From: an uncultured Gammaproteobacteria bacterium
GTDB lineage: Bacteria; Patescibacteriota; Patescibacteriia; Magasanikbacterales; GWA2-37-8
Assembly: GCA_964641245.1 (NCBI GenBank)
Contig: CAZXML010000001.1
Span: 229,460-293,459 of the forward strand
Length of the DNA: 64,000 nt
Direction of reading: 5' to 3'
Of the stretch, positions 1,490 through 32,569 are shown one piece after another. Both the position numbers and the translations under genes were made by a program. Numbering within the stretch: position 1 is the stretch's first letter; each line of letters opens with the position of its first letter. The notes below the pieces were generated by a model, which was given only the letters and a program-made list of their open reading frames with translations, ran no database searches and was not told the DNA's origin.

Positions 1490-3580
<2,091 letters not shown>

Positions 3581-5715: not shown

Positions 5716-6867
5716 TTAAACAATATTCCGTAACGCCAAACCAATGGCCACGGACATGCGCGGCCCTATTTGGCGCAAAATCGGTTTCAACCCCTCCTGA
5801 TATACGACTCTGGCCCAAGAATCTCCTACATATGTTTTAATTTTAAATTTTTCTTGAATATACTTTGCCAGAAACGGCATCAAGGCCATTCCGCCGGTTA
5901 AAATAATTTTTTCGGGGCGCTTGCCTTCATTGCCGGTTTGACGCAAATATAATTCCAAACTGACTTCTACCTCCTTCATTATAGGATCTACCACCGGCAT
6001 TAAAATGTCCAGCCATTTTTGTTCGGTTAATATATTATTACTGGTCGCGGCCAGATAGTCAAATAAATCATGCTTAGCCTGCTCAACTAGATCGCGTTCA
6101 ACCCCTAAAATATTTTGTAAAACCTTGTCTATTTTATCGCCACCCGATTCTATGCTTTGATGAGTAATTGGCATGCCCTGGTCTATTATAAAAAAGTTTG
6201 TGCGTTCGGAACCGATGTCTATTATCATAGATAACGCCTGATCCCTGCCAACCAAACATCGAGACAAGGCCGTTGATTCGGGTTCCAACGCCTCTAAAGA
6301 CAATCCGGCGCGCTGGAAAATTTTGGAATAAAATTCTATGAGTTTATGCGGTACGGCATTTACCAAAACCCGCTGTGATTTATCTTCGGGCAAACCTTTT
6401 AACACCTGATAATCCAAGGCCATTTCTTCTAAAGGCATGGGCAATAATTTTTTTACTTCCGCTTTAACAATATGATCTAGTTCTTCTTTCTTTAATATAG
6501 GAAGCGTAACCACCGCGTGAAAAACAGATGAAACCGGCAGGCTGACAACCGCAGTTTTGGATATTATTCGAGACGATTTGCAAATCGCCTTAAGAGTGTT
6601 CGCGTATTTTTCTATTTGCGCCTCGTTGTCACCCTCCCCTTTTAGGGGAGGGACAGAGGGTGGGGTATTCGCGGAGTTTTGTTTCTCTAAAAGACCGGCG
6701 ATATTTTTTTCTTCATTGGCCGCAAGTTTATGGATATCCTGTTTGCCGGATGTTAAACCGTACGAAAACAAAACCGGCCTGTTTTTTTCCAGGCGTAATT
6801 CTACTAATTTTATTCCCCCGGACCCGATGTCTACTCCGAGAAAGGATTTTGGTTTATTCCAAAACAT
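5716..6867 (-). CDS. pilM: Type IV pilus assembly ATPase-fold protein PilM.
   Basis: N-terminus FLGVDIGSGGIKLVELR has an actin-like/PilM fold with acetate-kinase-like phosphate loops. It contains an in-frame ~45 nt repeat-derived insertion (NTPPSVPPLKGEGD). Confidence 0.75.
   Translation of the reverse strand: MFWNKPKSFLGVDIGSGGIKLVELRLEKNRPVLFSYGLTSGKQDIHKLAANEEKNIAGLLEKQNSANTPPSVPPLKGEGDNEAQIEKYANTLKAICKSSRIISKTAVVSLPVSSVFHAVVTLPILKKEELDHIVKAEVKKLLPMPLEEMALDYQVLKGLPEDKSQRVLVNAVPHKLIEFYSKIFQRAGLSLEALEPESTALSRCLVGRDQALSMIIDIGSERTNFFIIDQGMPITHQSIESGGDKIDKVLQNILGVERDLVEQAKHDLFDYLAATSNNILTEQKWLDILMPVVDPIMKEVEVSLELYLRQTGNEGKRPEKIILTGGMALMPFLAKYIQEKFKIKTYVGDSWARVVYQEGLKPILRQIGPRMSVAIGLALRNIV
6628..6675. 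repeat. Family C (GGGGAGRG hairpin) element copy lying in-frame inside pilM.
   Basis: ccctccccttttaggggagggacagagggtggggtattcgcgg aligns with 47050 (ctctccccttttaggggagagacagagagaggggtatcgcgg). Confidence 0.65.
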
Positions 6868-7009
6868 AGTAACCTTAATTTCTAATAAGTTAAGTATACC
6901 ATATATGGGACTATTTGATAACTGGGGATAAATGATGTAAACTAAAGAAATAATGAAATTAGAAAATAAAGAAATTTCTTAATTTCGCAATTTCTCAATT
7001 TCCGTTTCT

Positions 7010-8389
7010 ATGAAACTATACAATACATTATCCAGAAAAATAGACGACTTTAAGGAAATAAAACGTGGAAAAGTAGGTATCTACGCTTGCGGACCAACTG
7101 TTTATAATTTCGCGCATATTGGCAATCTGCGGACTTTTCTTTTTGAAGATATTTTGAAAAGGACACTTCTATATAATGGGTACGCTGTGAACCTGGTAAT
7201 GAATATTACCGACGTTGGCCATTTAACCGGCGACGGCGATGAAGGTGAGGACAAAGTGGCTAAGAGCGCGGAGCTTATGGGAAAAAGCGCGTTACAAATT
7301 TCTAAGTTTTATACGCTGGCGTTTAGAAAAGATTTAAAAAAACTGAACATTCTGACACCAAATAAACTGCCCAAGGCCACAAGCAACATAAAAGAACAAA
7401 TTGCTTTAATAAAAAAATTGGAAACAAAAGGCTTCACTTATAAAACAAAAGACGGAATTTATTTTGATACATCCAAATTACCGGATTACGGAAAACTGGC
7501 GCAACTGGCCAAACAGGAATTAAAAGCCGGGGCCAGAGTAAGTATGGGAGAGAAAAAAAATACGACAGACTTTGCGTTGTGGAAATTCTCAACCGGAACG
7601 GAAAAACGCCAGATGGAATGGAAAAGTCCGTGGGGTGTTGGTTTTCCGGGCTGGCATATAGAATGTTCGGCCATGTCCGTAAAATATTTGGGCCAGCCGT
7701 TTGATATTCATTGCGGCGGCATAGATCTGGTACCTGTGCATCACACCAACGAAATCGCGCAAAGCGAAGCTGCCGAAGGCAAACCGTTAGCTAATTATTG
7801 GTTGCATGGCGAATTCGTGTTGATGGGTGAAGATAAAATGGCTAAATCCACCAACAACTTTATAACTTTACAAACTTTAAAAACTAAGAACTTCTCCCCC
7901 CTCGCCTATCGCTACTTATTACTGCAAACTCATTACCGGAAACAGTTGGCATTTTCTTGGGACGCTTTACAAGCCGCTCAAAATGGTTTGAATCATTTGT
8001 ATAATATAGTACGGACATGGGATAAATCCGGACCAAGTTGTACCGATTATGAAAAAAAGTTTTTGGAGGCCATAAATAATGACTTGGATATGCCCGCGGC
8101 CACAGCTATTATGTGGGAATTAATTAAAGACCCAATGTACCCGGGTTCCGCCAAAAGAAAAACAATTTTAAAGTTTGACAAAGTGCTCGGACTCGGTTTA
8201 AGTAAACTGAAAAAACAAAAAATTTCTGTCCCTGCGGAAATCCTGGCTCTGGTAGCCGGAAGAGACGGCGCCCGTTTTTCCAAAAACTGGGCAAAAAGCG
8301 ATGAGCTAAGAAAAAAAATAGAATCGGCCGGTTATTCGGTTGAGGATACGCCGGAGGGGTCAAAAATTACACCCATTTCTTCAATATAA
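7010..8389 (+). CDS. cysS: Cysteinyl-tRNA synthetase.
   Basis: 459 aa. [16 protein letters not shown] (HIGH motif) and KMAKS (KMSKS) are present. Confidence 0.95.
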
Positions 8390-8402
8390 AAAGATAAAAC
8401 AA

Positions 8403-8432
8403 AAACAGCCTTTGAAAAAGCTGTTTTTGTAT
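8403..8432 (+). terminator. Intrinsic terminator after cysS.
   Basis: Hairpin aaacagcctttgaaaaagctgttt followed by ttgtatt. Confidence 0.6.
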
Positions 8433-8531
8433 TGCCCCGTCGAAATTTCCTTGTGGAAATTCTTTGGGGCGAGTTGAACCGGAACGTGGTTACGTTACCG
8501 GGCGTTTTTGACGGGAAAGAGCGGGGTTGTG

Positions 8532-9074
8532 TTACTTTCCGGGCAACACCTCGGGCGCGTCATCGTCCTTCAACTTGAAGGGCGCCACGATGATCCGCGG
8601 CTCGACGTAGACTGACTTGACGTCCTTGCCGTTGGGATCCTTGCAGAGCACCCACGTTCCTTCCGCCGAAGCCGGTGAGAACAGGCCGTTGGGGTCCGCT
8701 TGCGCAATGACCTGATACGTATACCCATTTCGCCCGCTTTGGTTCTCGTACACGATCTTCTGCGGATTGGTGAACTGCGTGGCGTACGGGATGCCGTACC
8801 CAACAGAGTTGCAGAAGAACATTGCCTTCCCGGTCATCTCGTTGTACAGGTAGGTGTAGGTGACCAGACCATCCTGATCACGCAACTCCATGATGTCCTT
8901 CAGGATCTTCCGCTCGCGGAAGTTGTGGATGGCCGGCATGCCCACTTGGGCGGTTGCCTCGGCCAGCATTGTCTCCTGCTGTTGCTGCTGCACACTGTCA
9001 GAAGACTTGCCTCTGTCGGTGCACGAGCCCAGCAGAACAACCGTCGCAATCAGAACCACCGTTGTCGTCTTCAT
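8532..9074 (-). CDS. Putative lipoprotein encoded in the GC-rich foreign islet.
   Basis: The internal start MKTTTVVLIATVVLLGSC gives a signal peptide plus lipobox (LLGSC), preceded by a GGAG RBS. GC is ~58% versus ~42% in the flanks. The longer upstream extension in the ORF track is a probable GC-rich artefact. Confidence 0.5.
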   Translation of the reverse strand: MKTTTVVLIATVVLLGSCTDRGKSSDSVQQQQQETMLAEATAQVGMPAIHNFRERKILKDIMELRDQDGLVTYTYLYNEMTGKAMFFCNSVGYGIPYATQFTNPQKIVYENQSGRNGYTYQVIAQADPNGLFSPASAEGTWVLCKDPNGKDVKSVYVEPRIIVAPFKLKDDDAPEVLPGK

Positions 9075-9111
9075 GGCTTTTCTCCGTTTTCCTGCGTTGG
9101 GGGTTGAAGAG

Positions 9112-9492
9112 CTAGTACTTCTGACCGAGCCGTTCCTGCTTGAGCTGGTGGACGAACGCCCGCAAATCCGCGGGCATCTTCTCCTCCGGGTAGTCCGCGG
9201 CGCGATGCAGGATGATGGACGCAAGCGCATCCTTCTCCTCCTGAGACTTGGCCTGCACGTACTGGAACTGCATGTTCTGCAATTCCTGGATCATGCCCTG
9301 GTTGTAAGCCTTGGACTCCTCGAAGGTCTGCCGGCGCACCTTCTCGTACTTCGGCGCGAACGCCTTGTACAGAAAGAAGTCACTGCCTTGGACCAGCCAC
9401 ACGGATGCCAGCGCCAGAACCAGCACGCCGAGCACGCTCGCCACAGCCACCTTCACTCCCGACACGTCGGAACTTGTCACTTCAGGTCGCAT
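9112..9492 (-). CDS. Small membrane protein (hypothetical) in the GC-rich islet.
   Basis: The start MRPEVTSSDVSGVKVAVASVLGVLVLALASVWLV (single TM) has a GGAGG RBS 7 nt upstream. The GC-rich codon usage is shared with the neighbouring lipoprotein gene. Confidence 0.4.
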   Translation of the reverse strand: MRPEVTSSDVSGVKVAVASVLGVLVLALASVWLVQGSDFFLYKAFAPKYEKVRRQTFEESKAYNQGMIQELQNMQFQYVQAKSQEEKDALASIILHRAADYPEEKMPADLRAFVHQLKQERLGQKY

Positions 9493-9640
9493 TTGACACC
9501 TCCGAAAAAATCCACCACGAATCCTCCGTGGCCAAGGTTGGGCAAAATACCCAATGCATAATTGTAGCATTATAAATGTAATTTGTCAACCTTTTACAAA
9601 AGGCTATTTTGGCGTATATTACGCGTAGAATGGAGGACAA

Positions 9641-9794
9641 AATGGGCTTCAACAAGAAGCATTGGTTGTTTCATTTGGCGGCGATTAGGGCTGTTCTTTA
9701 CCTGGCTCCGGCCAATTGCGGCCACGCCAGGGTGGATAAAAAGGCTCTACCTATAGCGGACGTTGCCACGACGAGTCGTGGCTTTTTTATTTAA
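9641..9794 (+). CDS. Small hypothetical ORF (50 aa) with its own promoter-like and terminator-like signals.
   Basis: ttgtca...tatatt precedes a GGAGGA RBS and the ATG. The C-terminus overlaps a hairpin (ccacgacgagtcgtgg) followed by a T-run. Confidence 0.25.
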
Positions 9795-9842
9795 AAAAAA
9801 AGCCCTCATGCGTTCGCGGCTTTAGCGTGACCGTTCGAGGGC
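9793..9842 (-). terminator. Candidate intrinsic terminator for the 9864-10412 gene.
   Basis: On the minus strand, gccctcgaacgg...gcatgagggc is followed by a 9-nt T-run. Confidence 0.45.
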
Positions 9843-9863
9843 GACAGAATTCCTGCTGATTTA

Positions 9864-10412
9864 TTATTTTCCGTGCTCGGGCAACGCCTTCGTTTCTCCG
9901 GCTGTTGCAGTCATCTGAAGAGAAATACCGAAAATTCTCTCGGTTGATTCCGCCATTATTCGGACACAACTTTCGAACTCATCACCATCTATTTCACGAT
10001 AAGCCAGATTACAACGCAATGAATTAAGCTTATCCATCCAAATCCTGAACGGTTGGTTTCGCGCCTCAACTAAAGCAATTTGTTGCTTATGCTCCAACTG
10101 CTTGATTTTGAGCGCTTCCTTACCTTGCATCTGACTGGCAATCACCTCGACTAGCGGCTTCAATGCCTCAATAGCCGCCGGCTGACCATCAATTAAGCTG
10201 TCGGTCATAATCTCGCGAATCTTGTCATACCGCTGGGCGTCAATTGCCAGTTGAGACTGCTTTTCAGCCTCGATGACCTTGAGTTCTCGCCGGCCGTCAA
10301 GAATCTTAATACCAAAGACAAGTCCCAACAGACCCGCAATTCCCATCCCGATTAGGATCACCATTGTATTCCTCCTTGGGCCGACTATAACAAAAAACAA
10401 CCATTTTGTCAA
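9864..10412 (-). CDS. Hypothetical membrane-anchored coiled-coil protein.
   Basis: An N-terminal TM (ILIGMGIAGLLGLVFGI) is followed by a helical region. No recognisable family. Confidence 0.4.
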   Translation of the reverse strand: MTKWLFFVIVGPRRNTMVILIGMGIAGLLGLVFGIKILDGRRELKVIEAEKQSQLAIDAQRYDKIREIMTDSLIDGQPAAIEALKPLVEVIASQMQGKEALKIKQLEHKQQIALVEARNQPFRIWMDKLNSLRCNLAYREIDGDEFESCVRIMAESTERIFGISLQMTATAGETKALPEHGK

Positions 10413-10440
10413 TGGCTATGTGCGGGGAAAAAAATAATTC

Positions 10441-11370
10441 CTACATCCACTTCTTCTTTTTAAACACCAAAAACATCAGCATCGCGCCGATGACGATTAG
10501 GCCGGTTATTTTCCAAAAACCAAATGGGGTGGCGACGATAGGAGTGCCGGCGGCTTGAATGCTAAAAAGGGTGGCCACCAGGGTGAGCGGGAAGGTAATT
10601 ACGGAAATTATGGTGAGGGTGCGCATTATTTCGTTCATGCGGAGGCCGACGACGGATTCGTTGGTTTCGTGAAGCGCATCTACACTTTCTTTTTGGCTTT
10701 CCAGCGTGTGCCAAATTTCGTTTACGTGTTCACGTACAGTATTTATATAACTTTGATAAGATGATAAATCCAAATCTCTGCCACCGCTGGTAATAAGATG
10801 ATCCAAAACGGTTTTGTGGCCTTGCATGGCCCGACGGAATGTGACCACGTTGGTTTTAAGGCGCAAAATTTCTTCGGCCATTTTCCGGTCCGGCATTTTG
10901 GTAAATAAAATTTTATCTACGGAATTGATGTCGTCGTTAACATGTAAAAGAATGGGGAATACCGAATCTAAAAGACGGGTTAAGAGTTCAAAAAAAATCT
11001 TGGCGGCAGTGCCCTGAAAATATTTAGACGCGGTAGCGGTGTCTTTTTGGCATTCATTAAAAAAATTCTCTATTACAGGTAAACTGTTGTTGTGAATCGT
11101 TATTAAACTTTGACCGTTTAAAAAGAAATCCACTTCGGTAAAGCCCAGCCGGCGGGTTTTACGGTCAAAAACCGGAAAATGCAGAACCAAAAAATAATAC
11201 CCCTCGCGTTTTACAAATTTAGGGCGTTGAAATGCGGGCAGACTTTCTTTTATTTCCTGGTCTGCTAGATTAAATCTTTTTTGCACGGCGCGCAAGACTT
11301 TTTCTTCCGGCTGGGTGACGTTTACCCAGAGCAAACCGTTGTTTTGAATTTCGTTGGAGTTTTTGTGCAT
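10441..11370 (-). CDS. CorA-like divalent cation transporter family protein (GMN motif degenerate).
   Basis: 309 aa with a cytoplasmic alpha/beta domain and two C-terminal TM helices, ending in a basic KKKKW tail (CorA/ZntB architecture). The canonical YGMNF is not present, so function is uncertain. Confidence 0.5.
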   Translation of the reverse strand: MHKNSNEIQNNGLLWVNVTQPEEKVLRAVQKRFNLADQEIKESLPAFQRPKFVKREGYYFLVLHFPVFDRKTRRLGFTEVDFFLNGQSLITIHNNSLPVIENFFNECQKDTATASKYFQGTAAKIFFELLTRLLDSVFPILLHVNDDINSVDKILFTKMPDRKMAEEILRLKTNVVTFRRAMQGHKTVLDHLITSGGRDLDLSSYQSYINTVREHVNEIWHTLESQKESVDALHETNESVVGLRMNEIMRTLTIISVITFPLTLVATLFSIQAAGTPIVATPFGFWKITGLIVIGAMLMFLVFKKKKWM

Positions 11371-12168: not shown

Positions 12169-14718
12169 ATGGATATTACTGTTATAACAGATTTTCTCAA
12201 CAATTTGCTGGCGAACAGTCTTTTTCTTTTATTATTTCCTCCCGCTTTTGGCCTAATTATTTTAATTTCTTTTTTATTTATTTTAAAATCAGTCTTTACG
12301 GCAAAAGGGCGCGAAAGCAAGGCTTTTCATAAAACAGTGCTGTTAATAAAAGTTCCTAAAGAAAAAAAGGGTGAAAAACCGGATTCAACCAGCGCGGAAG
12401 CCAATCTTAATCAAACCCGCGAAGAAGTAGCCGTGGCCGAAACTCTTTTCTCGGCCATAGCCGGTTTAAAAAGAGAAAGCGGTTTTATGGCCTGGTTGCG
12501 AGGCCGGAACGATCATGTTTCATTCGAAATTGTGGTAAAGGACAGCAAAATATCTTTTTATGTGGCCATGCCGGATAAAATTAAAGGTTTTCTGGAACAG
12601 CAAATTCACGCTCAATATCCTCATGCCGAAATCACCGAAGAACCGGACTACAATATTTTCAAACCGCAAAGCCATATTGTCGGCGCTTATCTTTGGTTAA
12701 AACACAAATCGGCTTTCCCGATTAAAACATACAAAAATCTGGAAGGAGACCCTTTGATTTCTCTGCTCAATCCGCTAAGTAAAATTCTGGAAGACGAAGG
12801 AGCTATAATTCAGGTTGTAGCGCGTCCGGCTACCACTAAATGGCGCAGTCAGGGTGTCCGCATGATTCGTGATATTAAAAAAGGAGAAAAATTTGAATAC
12901 GTTGCCAGACGCGGCAAAATAGGTCGCGCTATGGCCGGGTGGACAAAGGTAATTTTCCCAAAAAAGAAAGAGAACAGCGAACATCAAGGTGAAAAACAAT
13001 ACCAACTCACCCAAATGGAAGAAGAGATGGTGAAAAACATGGAAGAAAAAATAAGCCGGGGGGGACTGGAAACCACTATTCGATTGATAAGTTCGGCCAA
13101 CAGCAAAGAAAAGGCTGTGCTTAATCTGGAAAACATTATCAACGCTTTTAGTCAATATAATTTGTACCGCTACGGCAATACTTTTGCGGCCGCTGTTCCC
13201 CGCAAGCCCAACGCTCTCATCCGCGATTCTATTTACCGCACCATGCGTGAGGATAAATATATGGTTTTGAGTACGGAAGAAATGGCCGGTTTGTGGCACT
13301 TGCCTACTCCCAGCACCGAAACTCCCAACATCAACTGGCTGGGCGCGCGCAAGGCTCCGCCACCAACAAATATGCCCAAAGAAGGCATTATTTTGGGCCG
13401 GGCCGTATACCGCGGCGAAGAAACAGTCGTGCGCATGAAACGCGACGACCGGCGCCGACATTTATATACTATTGGTAAATCCGGTAGCGGTAAATCCGTA
13501 TTTATTCAAAATTTAGCTGTTCAGGATATTATTAACGGCGAAGGCGTTTGCGTTATAGACCCGCACGGAGATTTCGCCGAATATGTTTTACAGCACGTGC
13601 CAAAAGAAAGAGCCGAAGATGTTATTTATTTCAATCCTTCCGACACCGAACGTCCGATTGGTTTAAACATGCTGGAAATAAATACCGAGGAACAAAAAGA
13701 TTTTGCCACCCAGGAAATGATTGCAATTTTTTACAGACTGGTAACGGACCCAAGCATGATTGGCCCGATGTTTGAACACAATATGCGCAACGTAATGTTG
13801 ACTCTGATGGCCGACATGGTAAACCCAGGCACAATTGCCGAAATTCCCCGCATGTTTACCGATGATGATTTTGTAAAAGAATGGAAAGCGAAACTTACGG
13901 ACCCGATGGTACTGGCTTTCTGGGATAAAGAAATGGCCAAAACATCCGACTTCCATAAATCGGAAATGCTGGGTTATTTGATTTCTAAGGTGGGACGGTT
14001 TGTGGAAAACGCCATGATCCGCAATATCATCGGCCAGTCACACTCCGGGTTTAATTTCCGCGAAATAATGGATAAGAAAAAAATTCTGATTGTAAATTTG
14101 GCCAAAGGTTTGGTGGGAGAAATAAACTCCAACCTATTGGGTTTAATAATTGTTTCCAAACTGCAGATGACCGCATTGGAGCGCGCATCTATGCCGGAAG
14201 AACAACGCAATGATTTTTATTTATACATAGATGAGTTCCAAAACTTTATCACCGAATCTATTGCCACTATTCTTTCCGAAGCGCGCAAATATCGTTTGGA
14301 GCTTATCATTGCGCATCAATATATGAAACAACTGGAAGACAATAAAGGTAAAACCACTGTGCGTGATGCCGTTTTGGGAAATGCCGGCACCATAGTTTCT
14401 TTCCGTATTGGCGTAGAAGACGCGGAAATTTTGGCTAAAGAATTCGCTCCGGTGTTTAGCGCCTACGATTTGGTGAACGTGGAGCAATATACCGCTTACG
14501 CCAAACTTTTAATTGACAATACCGCCGCTAAGCCGTTTAATATGTTTACCTATCCGCCCCGTGCCGGCAACAAAGAGCTGGCTGCAGCCATCAAAGAACT
14601 CTCCAGGCTGAAGTACGGACGGCCCAGAGAAATTGTGGAAGCGGAAATAAATGAACGCGCGCAGTTGGGTGTAGCTGTGTCTGAAGGAGAAACGACTACG
14701 AGCGAGGCGACACTTTAA
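12169..14718 (+). CDS. Membrane-anchored type IV secretion-like ATPase (VirB4/TraC-VirD4 superfamily, AAA_10/TraG-D_C-like C-terminal half).
   Basis: 849 aa with N-terminal TM helices. Walker A TIGKSGSGKS falls near residue 447 and Walker B is YLYIDEFQNF. The post-Walker-B motif ARKYRLELIIAHQYMKQL fits the (A)RK...hhhh(T/H)Q...QL signature of T4SS ATPases. The N-terminal ~440 aa are paralogous to 18610-20013. Confidence 0.6.
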   Translation: MDITVITDFLNNLLANSLFLLLFPPAFGLIILISFLFILKSVFTAKGRESKAFHKTVLLIKVPKEKKGEKPDSTSAEANLNQTREEVAVAETLFSAIAGLKRESGFMAWLRGRNDHVSFEIVVKDSKISFYVAMPDKIKGFLEQQIHAQYPHAEITEEPDYNIFKPQSHIVGAYLWLKHKSAFPIKTYKNLEGDPLISLLNPLSKILEDEGAIIQVVARPATTKWRSQGVRMIRDIKKGEKFEYVARRGKIGRAMAGWTKVIFPKKKENSEHQGEKQYQLTQMEEEMVKNMEEKISRGGLETTIRLISSANSKEKAVLNLENIINAFSQYNLYRYGNTFAAAVPRKPNALIRDSIYRTMREDKYMVLSTEEMAGLWHLPTPSTETPNINWLGARKAPPPTNMPKEGIILGRAVYRGEETVVRMKRDDRRRHLYTIGKSGSGKSVFIQNLAVQDIINGEGVCVIDPHGDFAEYVLQHVPKERAEDVIYFNPSDTERPIGLNMLEINTEEQKDFATQEMIAIFYRLVTDPSMIGPMFEHNMRNVMLTLMADMVNPGTIAEIPRMFTDDDFVKEWKAKLTDPMVLAFWDKEMAKTSDFHKSEMLGYLISKVGRFVENAMIRNIIGQSHSGFNFREIMDKKKILIVNLAKGLVGEINSNLLGLIIVSKLQMTALERASMPEEQRNDFYLYIDEFQNFITESIATILSEARKYRLELIIAHQYMKQLEDNKGKTTVRDAVLGNAGTIVSFRIGVEDAEILAKEFAPVFSAYDLVNVEQYTAYAKLLIDNTAAKPFNMFTYPPRAGNKELAAAIKELSRLKYGRPREIVEAEINERAQLGVAVSEGETTTSEATL

Positions 14719-31232: not shown

Positions 31233-32198
31233 TTATACGTCCCACTTAAAACCATTGCCGTAGCTACCCCACTCGGCGGTTTTTTCGAATTGGGGTTGGC
31301 GGAGTTCCAGGAAATCTATTATTCCCTGCGGGGATAAATCATAACCGGATATGGAAAAATCTACAGCTTCGTTGGTGGTTGGGCGGGTGACGGAAACCAT
31401 AACCGGTTGTTTTTTGCCGATGGCGTAAGCCAGCTTAACCATCACTTCTCCGCCAACTTTTTTCACCGCGTCTACCGCTATTTTGCGCGCCATATAGGCG
31501 CCACTGCGGTCTACTTTGGTGCCGTCTTTGCCGGAATAGGCGCCACCGCCAACCGGAACTTGCGGGCCATAAGCGTCACAAATAATTTTTCGGCCGGTGA
31601 CGCCGGTGTCCGCGTCAAATCCGCCGATGTCCCAATCGCCGGCCGGGTTGGCGTAGATGGATAATTCGGAATCCACTTCTTTGCCTTTAAACCATTCAAA
31701 AATTATATCGCGCAGTTCGGAAGATTTTGCTTTGTGAAAACTGGCCACCACGCTGCAGATTTTTCCGTCGCGCAATGTGATTTGAGTTTTTCCATCATTG
31801 GGGAATTTGGCATAGATTAATTTGTTTAAATTCCGCGCCAAATATAATTCTTGTGGAACGAATTCTTCGTTTGCGTCGCAGGCATAGCCAACCATTATTC
31901 CCTGATCGCCCGCCCCGCCTACATCCACTCCTTGGGCAATCTCTGAACTCTGTTGAACAATATTTGTATTCACCTGATATTGTTCGCCGGCCACGCGCTT
32001 GGCAATTTGCGCGGCGTCGATTTTTGCGTTAGTGGTAAGTTCGCCGGTAAGAGTGATAAGTCCGTGACCGCCCATGCTTTCCATAGCCACCCGGCTATGC
32101 GGATCCTGTTCTAAACAAGCGTCTAAAATAGCGTCCGATATTCTGTCGCAAATTTTATCCGGGTGACGCGGCGAAACCGATTCGGCTGTGATGAGCAT
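31233..32198 (-). CDS. metK: S-adenosylmethionine synthetase (compact, 321 aa).
   Basis: ESVSPRHPDKICDRISDAILDA, GAGDQGIMVGYA, TGRKIICDAYG and GGGAYSGKDGTKVDRSGAYMAR are present. Confidence 0.9.
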   Translation of the reverse strand: MLITAESVSPRHPDKICDRISDAILDACLEQDPHSRVAMESMGGHGLITLTGELTTNAKIDAAQIAKRVAGEQYQVNTNIVQQSSEIAQGVDVGGAGDQGIMVGYACDANEEFVPQELYLARNLNKLIYAKFPNDGKTQITLRDGKICSVVASFHKAKSSELRDIIFEWFKGKEVDSELSIYANPAGDWDIGGFDADTGVTGRKIICDAYGPQVPVGGGAYSGKDGTKVDRSGAYMARKIAVDAVKKVGGEVMVKLAYAIGKKQPVMVSVTRPTTNEAVDFSISGYDLSPQGIIDFLELRQPQFEKTAEWGSYGNGFKWDV

Positions 32199-32351: not shown

Positions 32352-32569
32352 ATTGACCTCGACCGAACAAATAAATTAAACAAAAAAACTTTCCTTGGCA
32401 GGAAAGAAAGTCGACCTTTATCTTTCCCCGTTGGGGCTAGATTTGGCACCTTATCCCGACTAAGTCGGGACAGGTTGTCGGCAGGTCTTAGGGCTAGTTC
32501 CCTCGCTGCACTCTTGATAACTATATCGTACCAGGTATTTCTTAATTATCAAAAAATACCTGGGGATAA

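Follow-up and report, generated by a model that had tools for sequence, protein, structure and literature searches.

A small islet between cysS and a CorA-like gene carries a lipoprotein and membrane-protein gene pair of probable phage origin

The window analyzed here is the whole 64,000-nucleotide (nt) stretch of contig CAZXML010000001.1, in which a 2,059-nt islet (positions 8383-10441) lies between cysS and a CorA-like gene. The islet contains two adjacent minus-strand genes, designated gB and gA, which encode a small membrane protein and a lipoprotein, respectively, a third minus-strand gene (gC), and a small open reading frame (ORF) which is its only gene on the plus strand. It is delimited by two copies, identical at 13 of 15 positions, of a sequence in which the 3' ends of cysS and CorA ancestrally overlapped. 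Reading from cysS towards CorA, the cysS stop codon is followed by a terminator, a 3' hairpin, gA, gB, a 5' hairpin and a promoter, and then by the small ORF, the gC terminator, gC, the gC promoter and the CorA stop codon. The individual features are as follows (L-numbers, here and below, denote the metagenome, genome or viral loci used in the comparison):

8368-8382, no strand: left copy of the ancestral overlap of the cysS and CorA 3' ends, TACACCCATTTCTTC, within the last cysS codons; present as a single copy in L065
8387-8389: cysS stop codon
8396-8433, no strand: bidirectional terminator hairpin between cysS and gA (inverted repeat I1, 18-nt arms, 89% complementary); kept in L145
8430-8399, minus: terminator-like site within the I1 hairpin, from a pattern scan
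8479-8501, minus: hairpin rich in guanine and cytosine (GC) in the gA 3' untranslated region, CCGGTAACGT-AACC-ACGTTCCGG, identified by reading of the sequence; L145 keeps it with a G-U-compatible change
8532-9074, minus: gA, a 180-residue (aa) lipoprotein and member of phrog_24725, based on ORF, PHROG match and homologue alignment
9112-9492, minus: gB, 126 aa with one N-terminal membrane helix, a member of phrog_26268, based on ORF, PHROG match and alignment
9514-9532, minus: hairpin in the gB-gA 5' untranslated region, just upstream of the GGAGGTG ribosome-binding site; listed as terminator-like by the scan and kept in L145 with two changes
9561-9589, minus: gB-gA promoter, TTGACA-17 nt-TACAAT with a TG extension, matching 11 of 12 consensus positions; L145 retains the TTGACA hexamer
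9593-9620, plus: promoter-like site of the small ORF
9642-9794, plus: small ORF, a truncated 5' end (signal-peptide region) of a 358-aa gene divergent from gB, based on a BLASTP match to the L145 protein
9765-9782, plus: terminator-like hairpin of the small ORF
9793-9842, minus: candidate terminator hairpin after gC, GCCCTC...GAGGGC followed by a T run, inferred by reading of the sequence (missed by the scan; long loop)
9864-10364, minus: gC, 166 aa with an N-terminal membrane helix and a helical region; also called as 166 aa in a JGI contig
10384-10412, minus: gC promoter, TTGACA-17 nt-TATAGT with a TG extension, matching 11 of 12 consensus positions
10441-10443: complement of the CorA stop codon
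10442-10456, no strand: right copy of the cysS/CorA overlap, TACATCCACTTCTTC, within the last CorA codons

The gB and gA genes form one operon on the minus strand, equipped with a near-consensus promoter and a terminator. An Rfam scan of positions 8300-10600 returned only a chance snoRNA-like match (E 0.28), and neither the islet nor its flanks contain an integrase, a transposase or a tRNA attachment site.

The GC content of sliding 300-nt intervals is 0.56-0.59 across positions 8450-9499, compared to 0.31-0.47 in the neighbours on either side and a mean of 0.430 (standard deviation 0.046) for the full 64 kb. Nineteen such intervals attain a GC content of 0.55 or above; the starts of 18 fall at 8401-9251, and the remaining one (31351) belongs to a metK-like gene. 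The top 1-kb interval (0.582, at 8501) compares with a maximum of 0.507 outside 7-10.5 kb. The non-coding bases 8440-8531 are likewise GC-rich. The excess is concentrated at synonymous, i.e., third codon positions, where the GC content (GC3) is 0.80 for gA and 0.83 for gB, compared to 0.447 +/- 0.037 (maximum 0.514) for 34 long ORFs of the window, thus some ten standard deviations off the host mean. The islet accordingly displays the atypical composition of a genomic islet, particularly at synonymous sites. The initial annotation, made from the letters of the sequence, had reported a composition jump between cysS and the CorA-like gene, which proves sharp and real, yet it had extended the GC-rich stretch to 9850, whereas high GC stops near 9500 and bases 9500-9850 are of mixed composition (0.44-0.50). 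Its further observations were borne out: long shadow ORFs are present in every frame; both gene models possess a GGAG-type ribosome-binding site 7-8 nt before the start and hundreds to thousands of homologues each; 8532-9074 encodes a lipoprotein with an LLGSC lipobox and 9112-9492 a protein with a single N-terminal membrane helix; the tiny plus-strand ORF does have promoter-like and terminator-like signals; and the downstream gene, here gC, is intermediate in composition (GC 0.476, GC3 0.51).

Relatives of the locus were gathered by scanning metagenome contigs with the cysS protein, and 80 cysS-relative loci were examined. In the closest relative, L065 (amino-acid identity of 83% for cysS, 90% for pilM, 82% for CorA and 78% for the next gene), the convergent genes cysS (5995-7380) and CorA (7358-8284) share 23 nt at their ends, and no further sequence separates them. 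A 15-nt piece of this L065-type overlap borders the window islet on both sides, and each gene retains its own copy; apart from this duplicated overlap, no flanking repeats or mobile-element ends were found. The islet is thus absent from a close relative in which the empty site is intact. The two genes also adjoin in more distant relatives, with gaps of 78 nt in L073 and 189 nt in L077, while other relatives carry unrelated cargo of 0.9-5.2 kb at this position, the differing cargo marking the cysS/CorA junction as a variable hotspot. Several of the cargo genes in L069 (7372-12553), L068 (1727-2664) and L072 (7384-9261) are small and GC-rich (0.54-0.67) in contigs with a GC content of ~0.41-0.47, and at least one of them encodes a lipoprotein; it seems that GC-rich foreign genes have gathered at this junction more than once. 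Neither gA, gB nor gC was found near cysS in any of the 80 loci. A second relative, L145 (amino-acid identity of 78% for cysS, 82-84% for pilM and 78% for CorA), has gB-gA at this site too, oriented as in the window; three assemblies contain it (L145, L146 and L147). Homology to the window extends to its promoter, untranslated regions, both hairpins (5' and 3') and terminator.

The cassettes of the window and L145 share their flanks as well as lineage-specific features, for example the gB tail QLKQERLG-KY, and are, as judged from these sequences, orthologous. Between them, the synonymous divergence (dS) amounts to 0.69 for gB and 1.28 for gA, compared to 1.03-1.57 for housekeeping genes, and G<->C differences at strong/strong four-fold pairs, which should be blind to GC-biased forces, number 16 of 54 in the cassette and 33 of 124 in housekeeping genes. 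Since cassette and housekeeping genes have diverged to a similar extent at synonymous sites, the capture is placed at about the split of the window and L145 lineages, and is not recent. The ratio of non-synonymous to synonymous divergence (dN/dS) is 0.26 for gB and 0.36 for gA, demonstrating purifying selection on the cassette. In both genomes, which have a GC content of ~0.43, the cassette GC3 is 0.75-0.85. A two-state estimate, rough as it draws on 79 four-fold sites, combines a host relaxation of ~0.54 per lineage, a host four-fold GC content of ~0.56 and a cassette value of 0.80 to return an ancestral four-fold GC content of ~1.0. The proposition that a GC3 of ~0.8 is incompatible with passive amelioration was dropped, the estimate being only borderline, and amelioration by passive decay, starting from a phage donor of very high GC content, is just tenable because viral copies with a GC3 of 0.94-0.98 exist.

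In L145 a gene encoding a 358-aa cysteine-rich secreted protein diverges from gB, at the same position and in the same orientation as the small ORF of the window, and the latter matches the first 46 residues of that protein (BLASTP E 6e-7); this match and the shared position identify the small ORF as a stump of the 358-aa gene. The L069 islet contains a homologue of full length (42% identity) beside CorA, which indicates that the 358-aa gene is an older resident of the cysS/CorA junction. In the window, gC takes the place of the remainder of this gene. The gC family is rare, with 13 representative clusters among 1.84 billion proteins, and was not found in any other cassette locus examined; it is lineage-restricted and stands outside the conserved gB-gA cassette. 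Searches of gC against Pfam, NCBIfam and PADLOC returned nothing significant, and profile comparison ruled out kinship with gB as well as with a 135-aa phage neighbour protein described below. The stump, the older resident gene and its replacement by gC together show the islet to be a mosaic from more than one event.

The gA product consists of a signal peptide, a lipobox (LLGSC, in the context MKTTTVVLIATVVLLGS-C18) and an extracytoplasmic alpha+beta domain of ~160 aa. Cys18 is conserved in at least 90% of homologues, and with a signal peptide ending in a lipobox gA is classified as a bacterial lipoprotein whose lipidation is predicted from sequence. It matches phrog_24725 with an E value of 4.4e-33 (residues 23-169 on profile positions 31-175 of 188) and has at least 2,974 homologous protein clusters; among 30 homologues 45 columns are invariant, and the window gA retains every family-invariant residue. 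A first AlphaFold model built with 30 close sequences was too poor (predicted local distance difference test, pLDDT, 64), while a model based on a 106-sequence alignment (pLDDT 78.8) predicts helices and a beta-sheet. No fold match was found for gA, including none to a pilin fold, and the gA and gB profiles had no match among PDB sequences. Most homologues have a lipobox, while 4 of 106 possess instead a canonical bacterial prepilin leader (GFTLIE; e.g., MKRG-FTLIEF...) and 1 of 106 an archaeal pilin leader, and the type of anchor appears to be swapped according to the host. In the homologues with the prepilin leader (L059 9626-10195; P0323 and P0334), KRG-FTLIE and a hydrophobic helix are followed by a 'GC' remnant of the lipobox. 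The window gA itself has a lipobox and is without a prepilin leader, and so does not conform to the type IV pilin-like proteins, which are marked by a G-F-T-L-I-E methylation motif followed by a pilin fold. A tandem second gA paralogue lies directly downstream of gA in L021 (10568-11128), L024 (10577-11137) and L025 (4661-5221). The L145 gA (8200-8811) is 53% identical to that of the window, compared to 75% for gB and 78-84% for housekeeping proteins; it has lost invariant motifs (QADPNG->QPEPNG, GYGIPY->GYPIPY) and gained a C-terminal extension, which suggests relaxed or changed selection on this copy.

The gB product contains a conserved helical domain (QG-DFFLYK-FAPKYE-VRR-TFE-SKAYNQGMIQELQNMQF...ILHRAADY), has 745 homologous clusters and matches phrog_26268 with an E value of 9.6e-7 (residues 22-118 on profile positions 11-110 of 116). 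It would be signal-anchored, with an extracytoplasmic helical domain of ~85 aa. Neither gA nor gB has a Pfam or NCBIfam match, and no PADLOC model matches gA, gB, gC or the small ORF. Among 57 gA loci in species-representative genomes, gB adjoins gA in most, almost always immediately upstream. A distant gB-like protein is encoded downstream of gA, and not upstream, in L048, L050 and L062, and upstream in L053. About half of the 57 loci are labelled as classes of the Patescibacteria/Candidate Phyla Radiation (CPR), and several of the remaining ones represent phage contigs binned into metagenome-assembled genomes, e.g., the 'Acidobacteria' locus L013 and the IMG/VR locus L153 are one and the same 123,707-nt record. 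The cellular-genome loci share no conserved neighbour, integrase or conserved non-coding ends.

At least 335 IMG/VR viral contigs carry a relative of gA, and gB is present as well in all 80 of those examined; the pairing of gB and gA is strict in cellular-genome and viral loci alike. This strict co-occurrence suggests that the two proteins form a complex. Among cultivated phages, gB and gA are adjacent, in this order, both in Synechococcus phage S-SRM01 (QPX48102 and QPX48103; 61% and 55% identity) and in Clostridium phage phi3626 (Gp44 and Gp45), and in Vibrio phages the gA relative is preceded by a small membrane protein with the gB motif. None of 72,556 plasmids contains gA. The gA protein is 40-70% identical across CPR bacteria, archaeal contigs and the phages of cyanobacteria, Vibrio and Clostridium, and its tree mixes phyla freely and does not follow taxonomy. 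To compare viral and cellular copies, a GC3 shift was defined as the GC3 of the cassette minus that of its background or host, with a cut-off of 0.15. In viral contigs the mean shift is 0.007 and exceeds 0.15 in 5 of 74, while in cellular genomes it exceeds +0.15 in 20 of 47 loci and is below -0.15 in three. The match in viruses and the excess in cells thus identify phages as the compositional home of the family and the chromosomal copies as captures.

Several viral, phage-like and CPR-like loci are of note in their own right. In large viral genomes, the neighbours of the pair often include further small membrane proteins. A 135-aa protein with one N-terminal membrane helix is encoded downstream of the pair in 33 of 80 viral loci (L152-L231; e.g., L200 8489-8896), belongs to phrog_11227, annotated as 'protease', and matches phrog_1152, an Rz-like spanin family, only weakly (E 7e-4), while a 62-aa protein (phrog_4743), with two membrane helices by reading, is encoded upstream in 30 of the 80 (e.g., L169 3246-3434); the pair and these two membrane proteins may constitute a larger envelope gene cluster. 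In L150, a phage-like 5.4-kb Hainich groundwater contig with a GC content of 0.33, gB-gA (1973-3109; gA 71% identical to that of the window) is preceded by three paralogous small proteins with the motif (I/C)RNGFVSNSSSSSF and by an ORF whose cysteine pattern resembles, by eye, a radical-SAM (S-adenosylmethionine) motif. In L151, a CPR-like contig with a GC content of 0.39, the cassette (530-1421) lies directly upstream of a ComEC competence gene and has a GC3 of 0.61-0.66 compared to 0.32-0.37 in neighbouring genes, a pattern as in the window.

The closest known counterparts of the window cassette are the phage members of phrog_24725 and phrog_26268, i.e., Gp45 and Gp44 of phi3626 and QPX48103 and QPX48102 of S-SRM01, which exhibit near full-length homology and the same adjacency, order and signal/anchor features. 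The phage copies match the composition of their own genomes, whereas the window copy is chromosomal, solitary, in a non-phage context and compositionally foreign. With flexible genomic islands the window islet shares a variable position at a core-gene junction, atypical composition, an empty site and short direct repeats at its borders, but it differs from them in lacking an integrase, a tRNA gene and a transposase, while its 'repeat' is the duplicated overlap of the convergent genes, a sequence without whose preservation no insertion at this position would be viable. A resemblance also exists to T5 Llp, phi80 Cor and Ltp of Streptococcus phage TP-J34, and to morons in general, which like gA represent phage-origin lipoproteins in a stand-alone unit with its own promoter and terminator; gB-gA and moron-type genes furthermore have in common their location in accessory regions of lytic and temperate phages. 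This comparison draws on PMC9586334 and PMC3952083 and on general knowledge. No sequence or fold similarity was detected between gA and Llp, Cor or Ltp, and gA differs from them in being always accompanied by a membrane partner, gB, in being far more conserved and in having a far broader host range. As a kind, a horizontally acquired islet is ordinary, but the cassette belongs to a gene family that is uncharacterised, strictly paired and distributed very widely.

The islet itself has a foreign composition, is missing from the closest relative, is bordered by the duplicated target overlap and contains an operon with its own promoter and terminator, and the explanation considered probable is that a phage-type gB-gA pair was captured into a variable cysS/CorA islet; the part of this explanation that concerns origin and identity is very probable. 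According to it, positions 8383-10441 would represent a small mosaic islet inserted where cysS and CorA had met tail to tail and overlapped, and the GC-rich core (8440-9500) a self-contained operon of a phage gene family. The operon would have entered a low-GC lineage, probably of the Patescibacteria/CPR, at about the time when the lineages of the window and L145 separated; its source would have been of much higher GC content and was most likely a phage, and most of the foreign codon composition would have persisted since. Intact ORFs, ribosome-binding sites and conserved regulatory signals suggest that both genes are functional in the window. Their products would act outside the cytoplasmic membrane, gB as a signal-anchored helical protein and gA as a lipid-anchored globular one, and may form a two-protein complex acting on a conserved envelope component. 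In phages such a complex might protect the infected or lysogenic cell by superinfection exclusion or entry blocking, and a capturing cell might express the pair constitutively as a moron-like protective module. A phage-derived envelope module of the superinfection-exclusion type is the best guess for gA-gB, yet a tentative one, and exclusion as the mechanism is itself doubtful.

A number of observations weigh against this explanation. L065 is closer to the window than L145 is, and yet has a clean empty site; either a precise loss between the duplicated copies or a recombinational replacement is needed to explain this. The cassette is approximately as old as the split of the window and L145 and still has a GC3 of ~0.8, so that passive decay would need a donor with a four-fold GC content of nearly 100%. 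The initial annotation had suggested a homologue search with the lipoprotein to identify a donor lineage, but none can be named: the nearest homologues have only 71-75% protein identity, and nucleotide identity to the compared loci is at best 71-80%, in coding regions only. As regards function, no experiment or annotated homologue assigns one to gB-gA, and a literature search on superinfection exclusion and Patescibacteria, phi3626, S-SRM01 and CPR phage lipoproteins found nothing on the family. Known exclusion proteins are usually fast-evolving and receptor-specific. The conservation of gA across very different hosts argues for a universal target, which is untypical of known exclusion lipoproteins.

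Of the two alternatives offered by the initial annotation, horizontal acquisition is upheld by composition, the empty site and the phage family, while an assembly chimera is contradicted by the occurrence of the junctions in independent assemblies. A GC-rich fragment of another organism joined into the contig would produce the abrupt changes in composition seen at 8440 and 9500, but two further contigs, one of 31.8 kb from JGI and a separately assembled one from Logan, contain the gA-cysS junction, neither cysS nor CorA is disrupted and each has a copy of the ancestral overlap, and the relative from three other assemblies has the islet between CorA and cysS, including promoter, untranslated regions, terminator and the 5' end of the 358-aa gene. 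As independent contigs cross the junctions, and as L145 carries an orthologous islet with homologous non-coding parts, the chimera is rejected and its probability is negligible; the islet is a real insertion and a misjoin is excluded. That the real insertion is an inert, decaying and functionless remnant is highly unlikely: the neighbouring 358-aa gene has indeed been cut to a stump, and L145 gA has lost the family-invariant QADPNG motif, but in the window both ORFs have remained uninterrupted and possess start codons and ribosome-binding sites, the window gA keeps all invariant residues, dN/dS is below 0.4, and the promoter, 5' hairpin and terminator are conserved relative to L145. The high GC3 may alternatively reflect a long-resident cassette whose GC-rich synonymous sites are actively maintained, either by GC-biased gene conversion in repeated recombination with environmental alleles or by selection on the mRNA. 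Such maintenance would fit the housekeeping-like dS and G<->C differences of the orthologous cassettes, the retention of a GC3 of 0.75-0.85 in two ~0.43-GC genomes with its implied ancestral value of ~1.0, and the excess in 20 of 47 cellular loci. It is nevertheless rather unlikely, given that viral GC3 values of 0.94-0.98 leave passive decay possible, that the ancestral estimate from 79 four-fold sites is rough, and that many loci (L005, L008, L021, L034 and L150) have host-like or lower GC3, indicating no universal GC pressure on the family.

Whichever force shaped its composition, a captured phage-type pair might serve functions other than exclusion. The gene order and predicted topology of gB-gA, a membrane-anchored helical protein followed by a lipoprotein, are those of the lambda spanins Rz/Rz1, and the frequent viral neighbour with its weak match to phrog_1152 points in the same direction, so that the pair could be conceived as a two-component spanin-like lysis pair left by a prophage. 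O-spanins are short, proline-rich and unstructured outer-membrane lipoproteins encoded in the lysis cassettes of phages with diderm hosts, and both CPR bacteria and the hosts of Clostridium phages are considered to lack an outer membrane. Mature gA, by contrast, is large (~160 aa), structured and highly conserved, and spanin PHROGs match neither gA nor gB. The pair lies outside any lysis cassette and occurs in a Clostridium phage and many CPR genomes, so that its carriers include organisms that lack an outer membrane. The neighbourhood of the cassette is free of endolysin, holin and other phage genes both in the window and in at least 50 cellular loci, and its promoter is of a strong constitutive type. 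A spanin function is consequently very improbable. It is also unlikely that gA is pilin-like and that the pair acts on a type IV pilus or pseudopilus machinery, where it might block pilus-dependent phage entry or DNA uptake. This idea originates in the KRG-FTLIE leaders which replace the lipoprotein signal peptide in four gA homologues and in the one archaeal pilin leader; moreover, the window islet lies 1.5 kb from a cluster of pilM, pilin and prepilin peptidase genes, and the hosts of carrier phages as well as CPR bacteria have type IV pili (general knowledge). Set against the lipobox of the window gA and the lack of a pilin fold match, the type IV pilus link is a lead from prepilin-type leaders only. 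A more far-reaching proposal, rather improbable as it stands, would make gB-gA a previously unrecognised and very widespread two-protein envelope system of bacterial and archaeal phages, with a fold that is new among solved structures, which acts on a universally conserved surface machine such as the type IV filament/class III signal-peptide apparatus to block the entry of DNA or of other phages. CPR bacteria would then have captured the pair repeatedly, and its high GC content in their AT-rich genomes would be maintained by a process that favours GC, either selection or biased gene conversion in recurrent recombination.

Elsewhere in the window, a SAM riboswitch (Rfam RF00162, 55.8 bits) is located on the minus strand at 32415-32523, upstream of the metK-like gene (31233-32198, minus). 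Approximately 1.7 kb beyond CorA, at ~12169-14718 on the plus strand (mapped from L003 4357-6906), lies a gene whose 849-aa product is a VirD4/TraG-like coupling protein containing DUF8128; another DUF8128 protein is encoded further beyond it. These genes fit the monoderm-type type IV secretion system of Patescibacteria (PMC12102498). A Patescibacteria/CPR source of the window is probable, judging from its gene content (the VirD4-like gene with DUF8128 and the pil cluster) and from how the metagenome-assembled genomes with the nearest homologues are labelled.

With the concern of a misassembly removed, the locus represents a clean and datable gene capture in a CPR-type genome, in which the insertion entered a 23-nt overlap of convergent core genes and the overlap was duplicated. 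The conservation of the gB-gA pair, together with its invariable linkage and export, recommends it as a candidate for a general phage-host envelope mechanism, and its presence in the cultivated phages phi3626 and S-SRM01 and in Vibrio phages makes it testable.

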